In this document: positions 15,324-29,718 of the stretch, piece by piece
Numbering within the stretch: position 1 is the first letter of the stretch
Layout of the letters: every line of letters starts with the position of its first letter
From: Minisyncoccia bacterium
GTDB taxonomy: Bacteria; Patescibacteriota; Minisyncoccia; Phycocordibacterales; DATDWN01
Direction: 5' to 3'
Assembly (NCBI GenBank): GCA_965661755.1
Contig: CBFIEZ010000001.1
Coordinates: forward strand, 1 to 40,238
DNA length: 40,238 nucleotides
Program-made: the position numbers and the translations under genes
Notes under the pieces: model-generated
What the model was told of the DNA's origin: nothing
Database searches by the model: none
Seen by the model: the letters and a program-made list of their open reading frames with translations, nothing else

Positions 15324-15360
15324 TGTGAGTTTGGTATAATGGGAACTAAAAAGATATTCT

Positions 15361-15445
15361 CGGAAGATGTAGGACTCGAACCCACACACCGAATAAACGG
15401 TGTCCCATTAGCAATGGGGTGCAATAACCATTCTGCCAATCTTCC
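15361..15445 (-). tRNA. tRNA-Ser(GCU), type II with a long variable arm
   Basis: Manual cloverleaf: 7-bp acceptor stem GGAAGAT/ATCTTCC; D arm GCAG/TTGC; anticodon loop TTGCTAA; variable arm CACCG-TTTATT-CGGTG; T arm GTGGG-TTCGAGT-CCTAC; discriminator G. Confidence 0.8.
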
Positions 15446-15477
15446 ATGTACACGGAGCAAGATGATCTGTCTTGCTC

Positions 15478-23445: not shown

Positions 23446-23530
23446 GATTGGTATAGCTTATTGGGGTAGAGCGTGCAGTGCACAATCAAACAGGAAAAGC
23501 AAGAGGTGGGTTCGAGTCCTACTACTAATC
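23446..23530 (+). ncRNA. tRNA-like element B, which lacks an anticodon arm; it sits in a hairpin-flanked cassette spanning 23421-23560
   Basis: Acceptor stem ATTGGTA/TACTAAT (extendable to 8 bp), D arm GCT-TATTGGGGTAG-AGC, and T arm GTGGG-TTCGAGT-CCTAC are all canonical. The 33 nt between the D and T arms form no 5-bp stem with a 7-nt loop at any register. The flanks are homologous to cassette A. Confidence 0.45.
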
Positions 23531-23908: not shown

Positions 23909-24469
23909 ATGCCGTTGTCGACTCCGATACCTCCGGCAGATCCATCGGAAAGTAAAGTTATACAAAAAACTACCAACCAACCCGGGAAGGTTAAGCCAGT
24001 AGCTAAGCAGACTATAAGCAATCCAGATCAAAAGTCTACGTGAGATAAAGTTGATCTAATCCACCTATCAGACTACCAGGATGGACTAGCAACCTACCTC
24101 TATAGAAATTGCCTAAAAGCTATTGGTAATATAACTTGAGAATATAGCTGTGAAAATCAGCTCAAGACATTCACAACAGAGAATGGAGCTTGGAATCTAA
24201 ACACAGTAAGTGGCAAGAATAAGAATGGAACTAGAGACTATGGGCTCTGTCAACTCAATGGATGAAATGCTGTCTATAGAAAGTTCATAAACTCCCCTGA
24301 CTTCAAAGATCCCTACAAGCAATTAGATTATTGTTTGGAAATATGGATTGATGCAAAGAAAAGATGATCGATGCCATGGTTTTGACACCAAATGTATGAC
24401 TATCTCTACTCCTCTAAGCAAATGGCAAACAGACTTAGAGCAAGATGATATGTCAAAATTGTCTCATAG
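23909..24469 (+). CDS. Lysozyme-like muramidase, c-type (GH22-like) signature (186 aa)
   Basis: FTTENGAWNLNTVSGKNKNGTRDYGLCQLNG[TGA]N parallels [27 protein letters not shown] of c-type lysozymes; both the Glu and the Asp are present. 6 in-frame TGA, checked. Confidence 0.55.
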
Positions 24470-24485
24470 TTTTAGCACTCTCATA

Positions 24486-25559
24486 ATGTCTAATTATATG
24501 TTCAAATATATCTGGAATCTAAGAGATTCAGTTTTCACGAAGGATAAAGGGAAGGTATTTAGTTGTTTTGCTTGTGGTGGAGGCTCTACAATGGGCTACA
24601 AACTGGCTTGATTTGATGTCATTTGATGCAATGAGATCGATAAGAAGATGATGGACTGCTATGTGTCCAATCATCATCCGAAATACAACTATTTGGAAGA
24701 TATTAGAGTTTTCAAGGATAGGGATGACCTGCCTGAGGAGCTCTACCATTTAGACATTTTGGATGGCTCTCCTCCATGTAGTAGTTTCTCCATGGCTGGG
24801 AATAGAGAGAAGGACCGATGAAAAGAGAAAAAGTTCAGGGAATGACAAGAACTCCAAACTCTAGACAATCTATTCTTTGACTTCATAGAGCTTGCAAAGA
24901 AGCTCCAACCTAAAGTGGTAATAGCTGAAAATGTGAAATGATTGCTCATCTGAAATGCAGTCGACTATGTGAAAAGGATCTACAAAGACTTCAATGAGGC
25001 ATGATATGAGGTGGAACACTACCTGCTCAACTCCAAAGATATGGGAGTACCACAAGCAAGAGAAAGAGTCTTTTTCATAGCTATTAGAAAGGATCTAATA
25101 GCATGAATGGGCTTGCCATCAATTGATATGTTCAAGAACTACCCTCAACTAGATCTTACCTTCAATGAGAAGGAGATCCCCTATGAGGAGATAGAAAACA
25201 AGGAGAAAGAGTTTGAGGAATGAAAGCATATCCCTGAATGAATACTCCCCTTTTGGGAGCAAATCAAACCAGGGAGGAGTTGTTCAGACGTACACCCTAA
25301 GTGACATTACTTCCAAGAGCTCAAACTTCATCCTAAAAAGCCTCTCCCTACTCTTAGGGCATGAAGCAATAGTTACTACCACTATGAGAAGCCAAGAAGA
25401 CTATTTAATGATGAGATCATCAAAGGACAATCCTTCCCTAGTGATTATGACTTTAGGAAATCACAACCAATCTACATTTGTTGAATGTCAGTTCCTCCTG
25501 TAATGGTGGCACAAATAGCATCTAGAGTCTACAGCCAATGGCTTACCAAGATTGCATAG
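24486..25559 (+). CDS. DNA (cytosine-5) methyltransferase (357 aa)
   Basis: Motif I FACGGG..G..LA[TGA]F; motif IV GSPPCSSFS; motif VI AENVK[TGA]LL; motif VIII QARERVF; motif X C[TGA]MSVPP. 13 in-frame TGA, checked. The start could be up to 36 nt upstream. Confidence 0.85.
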
Positions 25560-25576
25560 CACTTATTTTATTCTTT

Positions 25577-26182
25577 ATGAAACGTGTAATGTTTAACGCA
25601 CATAAACTATTCACAGGTATTGCAAAGCTCTTTGAGCCTAAAAAGAAGAAGTATGTAAAAGGTGGAAAAAAGTATATCCCAAGACCCAAGAGATCAAAGT
25701 ATGAAAAGTATTGGGTAAATCAAAAGATCCCCTTCTCTGAAATCCCAAAAGTAAAGGAATTAAGAAAGACTCATACTCTCCAGGAAATTGCTGACATATA
25801 CCAAGTTAGTAGAGAGAGAATAAGACAAATATGCTGAGGTAGAGTCCTAAATGTTAAGAAAGAAACAAGAGAAAAATTGGAAGAAATAAGGAAGTATGCT
25901 AAAACTCACACACTTAAAGAGATCTATGATAAGTACCATGTAACAGCACAAACCCTCAAGCATCACAATATGGAGTATATTGTTACGAAGAAGATCTATG
26001 AGATATTTGATGGGTATGACCTTATAGGTCTCCTAGAAACATACACATACAAAGAAGTAGCCCAGATGTTCAATGTGTCTATCTGAAATGTCCAATATGC
26101 AAGAGATGTAATACTTGGATTAGGGAAGAGATCAGGCACTTTATCATCTAAAAAGGCTAAATGAAACTCAAACTTATCTTAG
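25577..26182 (+). CDS. DNA-binding protein with three sigma-70 region-4-like HTH repeats (201 aa)
   Basis: HTLQEIADIYQVSRERIRQI, HTLKEIYDKYHVTAQTLKHH and YTYKEVAQMFNVSI[TGA]NVQYAR. 3 in-frame TGA. The 3' end overlaps the next gene by 22 nt. Confidence 0.55.
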
Positions 26183-27447
26183 ACACGCCTAATTACTGTG
26201 CAACAGTAGTAAAGGTCAACAATCTTATTCCACTTGCGTGATGTGATAATGTAGTATGATTCTCTATATTTGGCTTCCAGGCAATTGTAAGTAAAGATAC
26301 TAAGATAGGAGATTATGGGATTATATTTACTGCAGAAACCCAGTTATCTGAGGACTTCTGTAAGAAAAATAATCTCTATAGACATGCCGGATTAAATGAT
26401 GACCCAACCCAAAAAGGTTATGTAGAAGACAATAGGAGGGTGAAAGCTATGAAGTTCAGAGGACACAGATCCTCTGCTCTCTTTATGCCTCTCCAGTCTC
26501 TACTCTATATTCCCTCAACAGAATGAGAGGAGTTTGAGGAGTGAGTGTCTTTCAATCATCTTAATGGTGTAGAGGTTTGCAAAAAATATGTTGTTCATAC
26601 TAGAGAGGGAAGACAAAATCATATAGCTGGGAAGACAAAGAAGTTTGAAAGAATAGACTGCAAAACCTTCCCTGAGCATCTTGATTCTGACAACTACTTT
26701 AGGAATGCCCATATGTACCAACCAGGAGATCAGATCATTGTAACACAAAAACTCCATGGGACATCAGGTAGATTTGGAAACGTGAAAGTAAGGAGAAAGC
26801 TATGACTCTTTGAAAAGATCCTCAAGAAGCTATGAGTGAAAATTAGTGAGATAGAATATGACTACATAGCAGGATCTAGGAGAGTTATTAAGGATGCAAA
26901 ATCAGAAAGAGAGTTCACTCACTACTACTCCTCTGATGTGTGGAATGAGATGCTTGAAAAGATCAAGACCCTCATCCCTAAAGACTACATCATCTATGGA
27001 GAGATTGTAGGTTGGACAGGAGAGAAACCAATCCAGAAGGGGTATACATATAAGATCCCTAAGTGAGAGAATGAGCTCTACATCTATAGGATCTCTATTG
27101 TGAATGATGATGGAGTTGCAACCGATCTTTCATGGAGTGCTATCTTGCATTTCTGTGAGATGACAGGTCTAAAGGCTGTTCCTACCTTTGAGATAATGAC
27201 ACATGAAAAGTTTGAGGCATCACAATTCCTAGATAAGATATTTAGTGAGATGTACCCTCAAGCACTTCCTTTGGATCCAGAGTCTCCATGTGATGAGTGA
27301 GTATGTCTAAGAAGGGAATCTTTATTGCCATATATCACTAAAGCAAAGTCTCCGAACTTCTTTGAGTTTGAGTCTAAGCAACTTGATACATGAGAAGAAG
27401 ATATAGAAAGTTTAGAATCTAATACACCATCACTTGATGATAAATAA
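26161..27447 (+). CDS. RNA ligase, Rnl2/RNA_ligase-family nucleotidyltransferase (428 aa)
   Basis: Motif I TQKLHGTSGRF (K-x-H-G), YGEIVG, motif IV CDE[TGA]VCLRRE, motif V TKAKSPNF. 9 in-frame TGA, checked codon by codon. Confidence 0.7.
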
Positions 27448-28012
27448 TTTTGATTCTTTTGGGTTTGAGTTTGTAGAGTGAGAGTTTTATTTCTTCCAGA
27501 TTCTTGATAGAAGTAAGTCTGGAGGAAATAACAAAACCCGCTGTATCAAGTCATATTATATCGACAACCAGGAGTTCTTTGACAAGAAGAAACCTGAGAT
27601 GATAGAGCTTGCTGATACAACAAAGAGCAGAGTCTATGTCCATCCGGCCAGGAGAAGGAAAGACAAAATAGCTCTTGAACTCCTCTCCTATGTTGCTGAC
27701 TGCATAAATTATGGGGAGCTAGATAGGGTCTGGAGATGATATGAAACTGTTTGTTGAAGAAACCATGGAGTCAAAAAGATGTGGATTGTGGATGTAGATA
27801 GCAATGAAACAGTAGAGGTAAGAAATGCTATTGCTCATATTAAAGACATCCAACCATTCAGAGTGCCTGCAAAGATAGTCAACACAGTCAATTGAGTGCA
27901 TCTCATATATGAGGGATGATTTGATAGGACAAAGTACAAGCTGAAATGGGATATACAGACCAATAATCCAACAGTTATTTATTCCTCAGAAACTCCAAAA
28001 TGAGAGCTATAA
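27437..28012 (+). CDS. Hypothetical protein (191 aa) wedged between the RNA ligase and Pnkp genes
   Basis: It overlaps the ligase gene by 11 nt and the Pnkp gene by 13 nt. 6 in-frame TGA, checked. Motifs WIVDVD and N[TGA]VHLIY. Function unknown. Confidence 0.5.
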
Positions 28013-28872
28013 TACTCAAAGGAATCCCCTCTTGTGGGAAAAGTACAAAGGCTATAGAGCTAGAAAAAGAGTGATATGTCAGAATCAATAGAGACACAAT
28101 TAGAGAAGAAAATCCTGATATGTCTGAGGATGATGTAAGGCACTACAAAAATAGGATGATAACAGATGCTCATGCTGCAGGCTTGAATATTGTAATTGAT
28201 GACACAAACATCAATCCAAATACCCTAGAAAAAACAAAGAAGTTCCTAGAGGCTCTTGCATATGAAACAGAGGTCTTTGATTGCTTTGATGCTGTAATAA
28301 AGGAATGGATAGATGCTCCAGTAGCTCTAGGACAATGTATCACTTGGAACACTAAGAGAGAAAAGTATGTGCCGGAGAGTGTGATATATGACATGTACCT
28401 CCAGGATGATAGGCTCTTAGATAAGAAAGATGTTGTGATTATAGATCTAGATGGGACTCTCTACAATATCGATCATAGATTAGAGTTTGTGACTAATGGA
28501 AAAAGAGATTGGGCACAATTTGAAAGCCAAGAAGAAATAGCAAAGGATCAGGTCTATGATGCTGTAAAGAAAGTAATTACATCACTCTATAACAAATATA
28601 GCATCATCCTTCTTAGTGGTCGTAAAAATAAGAATTGCAAGCAAACTGTAGCCAATCTTGAAAGAGATGGGATCAAATATGATGCCCTCCTAATGAGACA
28701 AACATGGGATAGCAAACCTGACTACCAAGTGAAGCAAGGATTTGTAGATCTCATCAAGAAAAACCACAACATCCTCTTTGCCTTTGATGATAGAAAGCAA
28801 GTGATAGATATGTGGAAGAAAAATGGAGTGTATGTGTTCAACTGTTGTCAAAAAGAAAGTAACGATTTTTAA
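28000..28872 (+). CDS. Polynucleotide 5'-kinase/3'-phosphatase, T4 Pnk-like (290 aa)
   Basis: N-terminal P-loop KGIPSCGKST and C-terminal HAD phosphatase motif IIDLDGTLYN...SGR...FDDR. One in-frame TGA. Confidence 0.8.
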
Positions 28873-28890
28873 TAGTAAACTATGATATAG

Positions 28891-29718
28891 ATGAAACTTA
28901 TAGGATCTACAGAAAAGAAATCAGGTGTGGCTCATCGTGCTATATTGCCAGATGGACATTATGTTGTAAGTGGCGGAAGATACCATGATGCAACTTTCCC
29001 TATGTTCTATGTTGGGAAGTATGATGAACTATGGAATAACAAAAAGAAAATTACTCCAGAAGATCGTGAGTGGTATGGTGCTAAAATCAAGCTAGACTTT
29101 GAAAGCTGTGATGTTTGATTGTATGAAGCAAGACTCAAACCAAGAGAAACTTGGCAATGAGGACAGTGAGTAGACAAGATCCAGTTTGTAGATATTGATA
29201 CATGAGCATACTACACAATGTCTGTTGAGGATCTATTGAACTTAATAAAAGGCTTGTGAGAGTGAATTGTGAAGGTAGACAAAGATGGAATAATTACAGC
29301 AAGAGTTTCTCCATTTACAAGATGAGGGACAACATTTCTTACTGTGTATACCAAGGAATTAAATGACAAAATAGTGAAAGATCGTGAAGCAGCTATAGAA
29401 AAGAAGAATAGCAAACTAAAGCTCTCTGATCTAAAGGTATGATATGTCTATGATAGATATGTTTATCTCTGAAAATGAGAGGTAACATTTAGTTATGGAA
29501 GGTCAAAAACATGACATATATTTGTAAGTTCATGGAAAAGAGAAAATAAGAGCACAGAGTATTCACTATATGAATCTGATATTACAGTTGGCTGTAAATC
29601 TCTTTGGAAGAAATATGGGAAAGCTACTGATCCTATAGAACATATAATAAATGCAGTAAAAAGAGATGCTAGCTATTATAGAGATCATGTAACCAATATC
29701 ACTCTTTTATCTAAATAA
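28891..29718 (+). CDS. Hypothetical protein (275 aa)
   Basis: It extends ORF 28891..29118 through 11 in-frame TGA to TAA 29716-29718. Confidence 0.5.

Follow-up and report, generated by a model that had tools for sequence, protein, structure and literature searches.

Ribonucleic acid healing and sealing is a known counter-defense of phages, and the tRNA repair system of phage T4, which combines a polynucleotide kinase/phosphatase (Pnkp) with the RNA ligase Rnl1 (and also Rnl2), is a described example of it. Here, we examine a cassette of three overlapping genes at positions 26161-28872 of the forward strand in a 40,238-nt stretch of DNA (contig CBFIEZ010000001.1 of assembly GCA_965661755.1, deposited as a Minisyncoccia bacterium; the whole stretch is referred to as the window below), which encodes a ligase, a 191-aa protein (the middle protein), and a Pnkp. 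We are highly confident that this cassette is an RNA heal-and-seal operon segment of a phage in which TGA encodes glycine. The occurrence in a TGA=Gly phage merely widens the range of the known counter-defense; it is the third gene that is new. Taken as a whole, our reading is that of a phage tRNA/RNA repair segment with the middle gene as a new accessory enzyme, possibly a minimal nucleotidyltransferase similar to the archaeo-eukaryotic primases (AEPs), and we consider this reading, with all its parts together, to be evenly balanced between right and wrong.

The cassette resembles the T4 system in that a T4-type Pnkp accompanies an ATP-dependent RNA ligase, with a heal-then-seal logic. Unlike in T4, the cassette ligase is of the Rnl5 type with an N-terminal OB domain, as opposed to Rnl1 or Rnl2, a third conserved gene is located between the two enzymes, and the genes are contiguous, overlapping, and read with TGA as glycine. 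An earlier note on this DNA, made from the letters alone, had compared the cassette to T4 Pnkp and Rnl1 healing tRNA that was cut by the host anticodon nuclease PrrC; this analogy is looser than was stated because the substrates of Rnl5 enzymes are 3'-OH/5'-PO4 nicks within duplexes, with a 3'-OH strand that ends in a ribonucleotide, and not open anticodon loops (PMC4408790, PMC5397189). The Pnkp1-Rnl-Hen1 system of Capnocytophaga gingivalis (4xrp/4xru) is, like the cassette, a three-component system, in that its T4-like Pnkp stands alone, its ligase is separate, and a third protein acts with the two, but this third protein is the 2'-O-methyltransferase Hen1, whereas the middle protein has no methyltransferase signature. 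DraRnl and NgrRnl share with the cassette ligase the two-domain architecture, profile similarity over both domains, and all nucleotidyltransferase motifs; in contrast to them, the cassette ligase is encoded by a phage, is TGA-recoded, is ~90 aa longer than NgrRnl, and is found in an operon with a Pnkp.

The physiological role of the Rnl5 ligases has been described as 'uncharted' and the partners of the cellular enzymes as unknown, with a ribonucleotide-adding polymerase proposed as the upstream partner (PMC5397189); the middle protein may be this missing partner activity of the nick-sealing ligases. The three-gene logic of the cassette would also fit the scenario proposed for DraRnl. LigD (POL-PE-LIG) combines ribonucleotide addition by an AEP polymerase, healing of the 3' end by a phosphoesterase, and sealing by an ATP-dependent ligase with a preference for nicks that carry a 3'-ribonucleotide (PMC5397189), and the cassette would share this logic of three activities if the AEP reading of the middle protein is right. 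However, LigD is one fused protein that acts on DNA double-strand breaks together with Ku, whereas the cassette comprises three separate genes, an RNA ligase, an added kinase, and a tRNA-centered context. Accessory nucleotidyltransferases of known repair systems, namely RlaP, the CCA enzyme, and Thg1, 'restore missing bases' before ligation (PMC7824862). As with these, the middle gene is a small gene, probably for an enzyme, that has tRNA genes in its vicinity and is embedded among genes for an RNA ligase, a kinase, and a phosphatase, and the role that we propose for its product is likewise the restoration of nucleotides before ligation; the middle protein differs in having no sequence or fold match to them and in co-occurring with the CCA enzyme and Thg1. 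The survey of jumbo phages by the Aravind laboratory lists RtcB/Rnl1/Rnl2, PNK-HAD, 2H, cREC, KptA, RlaP, the CCA enzyme, and Thg1 as parts, and mentions no prim-pol and nothing like the middle family. AEP domains have been described in predicted RNA-repair proteins, but these are multidomain and mainly from kinetoplastids (PMC5862659, PMC8211822), as opposed to the stand-alone phage family described here.

Reading frames and the two flanking enzymes

When translated with table 11, the cassette region is a mosaic of short open reading frames (ORFs) only. Reading TGA as a sense codon increases the long-ORF coverage of the window from ~24 kb to ~59 kb, with far less effect from reassigning TAG or TAA, and reveals three intact ORFs on the forward strand with the same coordinates that the earlier note had given: the ligase gene (26161-27447; 428 aa, 9 in-frame TGA codons), the middle gene (27437-28012; 191 aa, 6 TGA codons in frame), and the Pnkp gene (28000-28872; 290 aa, 1 in-frame TGA codon). 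With TGA read as glycine, the end of the ligase gene overlaps the start of the middle gene by 11 nt (27437-27447, +) and the end of the latter overlaps the Pnkp start by 13 nt (28000-28012, +), as had been described, and every motif previously quoted (KLHGT, DE-G-V, KAKSP, GIPSCGKST, and DLDGT) was located. All three products pass profile searches and, hence, the three ORFs represent real genes, not chance ORFs.

The identity of the recoded residue was assessed by aligning each protein solely to homologues from standard-code contigs. TGA codons 128, 380, and 411 of the ligase correspond to glycine in 16/16, 16/16, and 12/12 of these homologues, respectively, and codons 107 and 153 of the middle protein in 74/75 and 74/75; the frequency of tryptophan at the TGA columns is 0.00, and the TGG codons of the window align to conserved tryptophans. 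These alignments indicate that TGA is glycine, not tryptophan, in the cassette phage. This code fits Absconditabacteria/Gracilibacteria; code 25 is used by both groups and by most of their predicted phages (PMC10746230). The suggestion of the earlier note that CPR-type hosts use tRNA-cleaving defenses is an extrapolation. Since no suppressor tRNA that reads UGA is present within the window, where the sole canonical tRNA is a tRNA-Ser(GCT) (15360-15446, reverse strand), whatever decodes TGA as glycine is presumably supplied by the host or encoded beyond the window.

The overlaps had previously been taken to suggest a shared function of the three genes. By themselves, however, they do not delimit a three-gene unit because the overlap chain extends further upstream and includes five genes (24351-28872, +), i.e., a C5 DNA methyltransferase, a helix-turn-helix (HTH) protein, the ligase, the middle gene, and Pnkp, with intergenic distances of -22 (methyltransferase/HTH), -22 (HTH/ligase), -11 (ligase/middle), and -13 nt (middle/Pnkp). 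The methyltransferase and HTH genes do not co-travel with the cassette in other loci. The shared function itself is upheld by comparative genomics (below), which represents much stronger evidence for it than the gene overlaps do.

The sequence of the ligase indicates an Rnl5-type (DraRnl/NgrRnl-like) ATP-dependent RNA ligase, with an OB-like domain at the N-terminus (~aa 10-150) and a nucleotidyltransferase domain at the C-terminus (~aa 185-410). It matches PF09414 (6.5e-12) and, over the full length, phrog_968 (1.7e-92), with weak matches to the OB domain of PHA02142 (1.2e-3) and to TIGR02306 (DRB0094, the DraRnl model; 2.3e-6). A profile built from nine same-type ligases of related contigs (A4) covered both domains of the Naegleria gruberi RNA ligase NgrRnl (5cot; 9.3e-26, NgrRnl residues 5-159 and 217-339) vs. 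only the nucleotidyltransferase domain of T4 Rnl2 (2hvq/1s68; 3.3e-8, query 273-422), which assigns the ligase to Rnl5 as opposed to Rnl2. In addition, the extra domain is N-terminal and OB-like, the C-terminus extends only ~30 aa beyond motif V, and the C-terminal helical domain specific to Rnl2 was not found. That is, the earlier identification as an Rnl2-type RNA ligase was right about RNA ligase and wrong about the family. Nucleotidyltransferase motifs I, Ia, III, IV, and V are all present, the catalytic lysine included. Motif I (KLHGT, 26749-26763, +) carries the predicted adenylylated lysine K197, motif IV (DE[G]V, 27292-27303, +) carries E379 and G380, the latter encoded by one of the TGA codons examined above, and motif V (KAKSP, 27340-27354, +) carries K394 and K396; ligase alignments A4 and A6 show no variation at K197, S239/R240, E281 (YGEIVG), E379/G380, and K394/K396.

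The product of the third gene is, to judge from its domains and motifs, a T4-type bifunctional polynucleotide 5'-kinase/3'-phosphatase, in agreement with what had been claimed. It consists of a P-loop kinase domain (~aa 1-135; PF13671 (AAA_33) 5.7e-9, aa 4-105) followed by a HAD (DxDxT) phosphatase domain (aa 144-290; PF25109 HAD_PNKP, 1e-21), matches phrog_505 (6.2e-51), and aligns end-to-end with two solved structures, T4 Pnk (1ltq, 3.3e-8) and, as its closest solved relative, Pnkp1 of the bacterial Pnkp1-Rnl-Hen1 complex (4xrp, 8.4e-16). Its catalytic motifs are all intact, namely the P-loop GIPSCGKST (28021-28047), INRD (28084-28095), DLDGT (28444-28458), SGR (28615-28623), and FDDR (28783-28794), all on the forward strand. 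The profile searches, therefore, recovered both enzymes that had been recognized from their motifs.

The middle family and its gene neighborhoods

The middle ORF had been called uncharacterized, and our searches agree. Pfam, NCBIfam, PADLOC, and PDB sequences returned nothing usable when queried with the single sequence, a 133-member profile, or the members singly, and the sole profile match is phrog_14949 (1e-13), a family of unknown function. The middle protein has 22 close homologues (to E = 2.7e-120), all unnamed, and an exhaustive profile search recovered 1,756 representatives of the family at 50% identity, with E <= 1e-10 for 1,222 and lengths that are nearly all 185-215 aa. The family is new in that Pfam, NCBIfam, and PHROGs leave it unannotated and no structure of it has been solved; no description of it was found in the RNA-repair surveys consulted, and Burroughs & Aravind 2016 may mention it. 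Public databases translate the TGA-recoded homologues (P0001-P0022) with tryptophan or truncate them at TGA, resulting, for instance, in NWxH in place of NGxH at a conserved glycine and in entries shortened at the N-terminus (e.g., P0008 and P0011); this mistranslation masks motifs such as NGxH.

Deposited phages with the family include Cellulophaga phi17:2 (gp033), Tenacibaculum pT24 (gp258), and the Lak megaphages, together with one crAss-like phage and a few uncultured phages, and Campylobacter phage CP21 carries a divergent branch of it (CP21_052, hhalign 97.1%). Because the family is found in many phages yet in only 20 loci among 185,579 prokaryotes (one genome per species), mostly on phage/prophage-like contigs of metagenome-assembled genomes (MAGs), it is essentially phage-borne. 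The culturable Cellulophaga and Tenacibaculum phages make genetics possible. CP21_052 is a hypothetical protein of 246 aa (L115:30990-31730, reverse strand), ~10.5 kb from a 'putative poly A polymerase' of the CCA type on the same strand (L115:42197-43219, reverse). The closest homologue within the genome collection (44% identity) is on a 42-kb contig labeled as a Candidatus Saccharibacteria MAG (L095, CAYOYW010000005.1). This contig behaves as TGA-recoded in the ORF test whereas Saccharibacteria use the standard genetic code and, thus, it is probably a mis-binned phage or an Absconditabacteria-associated contig.

For the survey of gene context, 114 loci of the family, gathered with the narrower and not the most diverse alignments, were clustered at 80% identity, which gave 64 clusters. 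The flanks of 24/64 clusters contain a Pnkp-type, Rnl, or CCA gene, with 8 clusters having the nearest one at <=16 bp, 12 at <=500 bp, and 18 at <=2.5 kb, and these neighbors were on the strand of the family member in 39/39 cases. Ten further clusters lie within tRNA/tmRNA genes (up to 22 genes; 225/225 on the same strand), so that 34/64 clusters show RNA-repair or tRNA context in union, as raw co-occurrence counts that have no random-genome background, are not enrichment factors, and represent lower bounds since the seed hidden Markov models miss RtcB, Rnl1, RlaP, and similar. As a control for specificity, 17 window proteins were searched against all loci; the ligase recurred in 19 and Pnkp in 33, the others in 0-3 (the methyltransferase, for instance, in only 3). 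Reciprocally, 29 of 60 phage Rnl5 clusters had Pnkp nearby and 9 had the middle family, at a median distance of ~0.5 kb. Therefore, the family is a specific accessory of RNA-repair cassettes and, being present in 9/60 phage Rnl5 clusters, an optional one. The earlier proposals that the middle ORF shares a function with Rnl/Pnkp and that it is a candidate new component of healing and sealing are thus well supported by gene context, and a functional link of the middle gene to the RNA-repair cassette seems likely to us on these grounds.

The individual gene orders are informative as well. The family member follows Rnl5 and precedes a P-loop kinase and a calcineurin-like phosphoesterase (metallophosphoesterase) in a standard-code locus with 4-nt overlaps (L048), lies between a kinase and a HAD_PNKP phosphatase (L053), or is flanked by an HD domain and Rnl5 (L076). 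In L007, the order is CCA-type nucleotidyltransferase, 79-aa gene, RNA ligase, Pnkp, and family member; in L005, it is CCA/HD enzyme, 108-aa gene, and family member; and in Cellulophaga phi17:2, 10 bp separate the family member from a tRNA nucleotidyltransferase gene downstream of it. L060, which represents 17 loci, combines a CCA enzyme, Pnkp, Thg1 (PF04446, 2.3e-32), an 85-aa gene, and the family member, with Thg1 ~400 bp upstream of the latter. Hence, the neighbors include non-orthologous replacements of the healing enzyme, i.e., a separate kinase, HAD, metallophosphoesterase, or HD protein. One member (P0157, on a short contig) is fused to cREC_REC (3.7e-18), a domain with a predicted role in the processing of cyclic phosphates and with links of its own to RNA ligases (PMC7824862); cREC excepted, most of the domains to which the longer members are fused could not be identified.

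A few side observations were made on the same loci. The L060 region (L060:4951-10624; IMGVR_UViG_3300045988_056908) is a dense tRNA-repair island on a ~187-kb phage contig, with 16 near-identical relatives elsewhere. tmRNA genes are found within a few kb of a family member in L029:11053-11459, L055:5452-5799, and L074:6934-7315, along with large same-strand tRNA arrays, and Band_7/SPFH genes are similarly close in two code-25 contigs (L007:8546-10006, L012:1241-2131); SPFH modules have been proposed as RNA-repair scaffolds. Some of the neighboring PolyA_pol/CCA-type enzymes are short (238-245 aa; L001:6550-7287, L007:3183-3899, L039:11447-12181) and may correspond to the head and neck of a class II CCA-adding enzyme, with a partner needed for tRNA binding. 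Finally, a gene directly upstream of a family member (L027:3442-4272) encodes DUF7666 with a C-terminal 'GGS...DLD' that resembles the signature of Pol-beta-type nucleotidyltransferases, in a cassette that also holds Rnl, Pnkp, and a 5'-3' exonuclease-like gene.

Possible function of the middle protein

Motif I of the AEPs is hhhDxD at the end of a strand, motif II is a small residue or glycine followed by x-His within the hairpin that comes after it, and motif III is a third conserved acidic residue located on a later strand. Over 133 diverse members of the middle family, down to ~25% identity, R25, R65, D119, and H155 are invariant, and K27 (98%), D121 (99%), and G153 (100% with TGA read as glycine) nearly so. 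In the window, all on the forward strand, R25 and K27 are in QILDRSK (27497-27517) at the end of strand beta-1, and R65 is in SRVYVHPARR (27626-27655), together with R73 (R/K in 92%). D119 and D121 are in WIVDVD (27782-27799), at the C-terminal end of beta-strand 115-120, which is a candidate metal-binding site similar to AEP motif I; G153, a TGA codon, and H155 are in TVN[G]VH (27884-27901), which resembles motif II; and the C-terminal WDIQTNNPT (27947-27973; position 172 acidic in 81%, T179 in 94%) is a possible counterpart of motif III. The order and spacing of DxD, GxH, and the acidic residue would thus fit AEP motifs I-III. With these residues, the middle protein is probably an enzyme, although we hold this less firmly than its link to the cassette.

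Two AlphaFold2 models, one for the database twin of the window protein with tryptophan at the TGA positions (pLDDT 90.6, pTM 0.85) and one for a standard-code member based on the 133-sequence alignment (pLDDT 97.6, pTM 0.91), share one alpha/beta topology, with a beta-alpha-beta-beta...beta unit at its end. Of the PDB structures, only HP0184 (2atz) recurred as a full-length alignment in both Foldseek searches (ranks 7 and 3; E 0.96 and 0.31, TM 0.34-0.40, i.e., below threshold); no other AEP structure was among the top 50 of either search. HP0184 is a minimal stand-alone AEP with a nucleotide-bound structure (PMC3397514, PMC8065100), and it resembles the middle protein in size (~180-190 aa) and in having DxD and GxH in AEP order, besides providing the best full-length structural alignment, although the similarity (TM 0.34-0.40, E 0.3-1) is below threshold and no profile link was found. 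Strong matches in BFVD are all uncharacterized phage proteins, with weak matches (E = 0.06-0.07) to a phage primase and a COG5545-type (primase-helicase-type) protein. Accordingly, of the folds that had been put forward earlier, Prim-Pol-like is the best available lead but not a significant one, whereas 2H, Hen1, and generic nucleotidyltransferase folds found no support in profile or fold searches.

Other candidates were also considered and rejected. An alignment of the family to the primase of Clavibacter phage CMP1, one of the weak BFVD matches, was uninformative (hhalign probability 0.3%; the N-terminus of this primase is not recognized by Pfam), and a bridge to HP0184 through CP21_052 failed, the latter having no PDB sequence match and homologues in Campylobacter phages only. 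An RlaP/Pol-beta fold, for which hG[GS]x9-13Dh[DE]h is the signature, has neither a Pfam match nor a Pol-beta structure among the Foldseek matches, and 'CG...x11...DxD' does not appear to be a Pol-beta signature, given that in the models the glycine ends a long helix instead of following a strand. A 2H phosphoesterase was rejected for the single invariant histidine, the absence of an HxT/S pair, and no Pfam, NCBIfam, or fold match; the Hen1 methyltransferase, with its SAM-binding Rossmann fold, and the Thg1 palm likewise have no such match to the middle protein. The residues required for Tpt1/KptA-like (R-H-R-R), HAD-like (DxDxT), and Pol-beta-like sites are not conserved across the family, and there is no fold support for these.

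Under the reading that we favor, Pnkp would first heal the ends by removing the 2',3'-cyclic or 3'-phosphate and phosphorylating the 5'-OH, and the Rnl5-type ligase would then seal the 3'-OH/5'-PO4 nick in a base-paired context. The middle protein would transfer phosphoryl or nucleotidyl groups at RNA ends in a metal-dependent reaction by means of R25/K27/R65, D119xD121, and G153xH155, adding back or extending ribonucleotides at the healed 3' end, that is, a 'fill' step between 'heal' and 'seal' that would yield the 3'-ribonucleotide nick required by Rnl5 ligases. The repaired substrate is most likely tRNA. That the middle protein is an AEP-like nucleotidyltransferase is our leading suggestion, a tentative one that is unproven because no sequence or profile method ties the family to any AEP. 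Slightly less probable still, and on balance doubtful, is the full proposal that the middle gene founds a family of stand-alone ~190-aa RNA-end polymerases, derived from AEPs, that fill tRNA ends beside Rnl5, Pnkp, CCA enzymes, and Thg1. If true, it would provide Rnl5 ligases with a natural partner and a physiological pathway, and add a new class of RNA-repair enzymes. The protein is a small and confidently modeled target with clear point mutants (D119, D121, H155, R25, and R65).

Several observations weigh against the reading that we favor. None of the 133 members matches a Pfam AEP family at E <= 1, the PDB profile search is empty, and no sequence or profile link to any AEP, Pol-beta, or Thg1 family was found; Foldseek against the PDB gives no significant match for either model (best E 0.2-0.3, TM < 0.5); and the putative third acidic residue (position 172, D in the window protein) is D/E in only 81% of the 133 members. 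Further, CCA enzymes, Thg1, and a probable Pol-beta-like nucleotidyltransferase are found alongside the family, which does not replace them, and, hence, the nucleotide-adding role is not obviously vacant. Finally, 30/64 clusters have no recognized RNA-repair or tRNA neighbor within 10 kb, and the family is present in just 15% of Rnl5 cassettes.

Alternatively, the middle protein might be a repair enzyme other than a polymerase, i.e., an end-preparing phosphoesterase or phosphotransferase with a new fold, for example a 2',3'-cyclic phosphodiesterase, a remover of 2'-phosphates, or a protective end-modifying enzyme. The invariant Arg/Lys/His and Asp residues suit phosphate chemistry equally well, no solved fold matches significantly, the fusion to cREC (PMC7824862) is consistent with such a role, and so is the fact that the CCA enzyme and Thg1 accompany the family instead of being replaced by it. 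However, 2',3'-cyclic and 3'-phosphates are already processed by T4-type Pnkp itself (PMC3592404), in many cassettes the family adjoins a dedicated phosphoesterase, or even two (HAD, metallophosphoesterase, HD), no 2H (paired HxT/S) or methyltransferase motif or Pfam match was found, and the DxD...GxH arrangement together with the recurring HP0184 match favors an AEP. We therefore regard this alternative as unlikely, if the strongest of those considered.

The choice of tRNA as the substrate could be questioned too, in that the cassette might be a LigD-like phage module of polymerase, end-healing, and ligase activities that acts on nicks or breaks of the genome, repairing DNA or ribo-patched DNA. 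The DNA ends that T4 Pnkp also accepts as substrates would allow this, as would the replication initiator and DNA methyltransferase that precede the cassette in the window and the DNA ligase located 2.4 kb from the phi17:2 homologue. In addition, DraRnl aids genome reassembly after irradiation and was proposed to seal ribo-patch nicks behind a repair polymerase (PMC5397189). The neighbors across the family, on the other hand, are tRNA-specific (CCA enzymes, Thg1, tRNA/tmRNA arrays, and the cREC fusion), no Ku or other partners of non-homologous end joining were seen, and the methyltransferase accompanies the family in only the 3 loci mentioned above, which makes DNA repair distinctly improbable compared to tRNA repair.

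A catalytic role is, in turn, not the only one conceivable. In Pnkp1-Rnl-Hen1, ligation needs activation by the third protein, Hen1, and the window Pnkp is most similar to that Pnkp1; by analogy to the N-terminal domain of Hen1 or to Archease, the middle protein might be a non-catalytic partner, that is, a scaffold that binds tRNA or a protein that activates the ligase or the short CCA-type enzymes, several of which (238-245 aa) might lack tRNA-binding parts. Yet the residues conserved at 98-100% (R25, K27, R65, D119, D121, and H155) are charged or polar, as is typical of active sites, and the partners of the family are varied or absent, with no tracking of one enzyme, so that we give this possibility a little less credence than DNA repair. 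Least of all do we expect the linkage to be incidental, the middle gene being an unrelated early or accessory phage gene (e.g., for anti-defense) that shares a region with RNA-repair and tRNA genes, since, despite the many clusters that lack a recognized repair or tRNA neighbor, the unrelated genes in the overlap chain, and the tendency of phage accessory genes to cluster, adjacency is kept among members of 25-35% identity with shuffled gene order, the family lies between kinase and phosphatase, between ligase and kinase, or overlapping the ligase, it is always on the strand of the repair genes, a cREC fusion exists, and no window gene beyond the ligase and Pnkp co-travels with it.

Other features of the window

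A scan for promoters and terminators revealed nothing above background within the cassette. Directly downstream of Pnkp lies a gene of 275 aa with 11 TGA codons (28891-29718, +), which has no PHROG match and no counterpart in any related locus. On the same strand, 2.6 kb upstream of the ligase, a tRNA-like element (23447-23530, +) scores 36 bits against the Rfam tRNA model (gathering score 29). ARAGORN rejects this element as a tRNA, also when introns are allowed, no copy of it is present in related contigs, and the stability of its fold is at the level of shuffled sequence (z = 0.25). Its acceptor, D, and T arms look normal, with 22 nt replacing the 11-nt core of the anticodon arm, and its possible identities include a tRNA-like element, a tRNA that has decayed, and the remnant of an att site.

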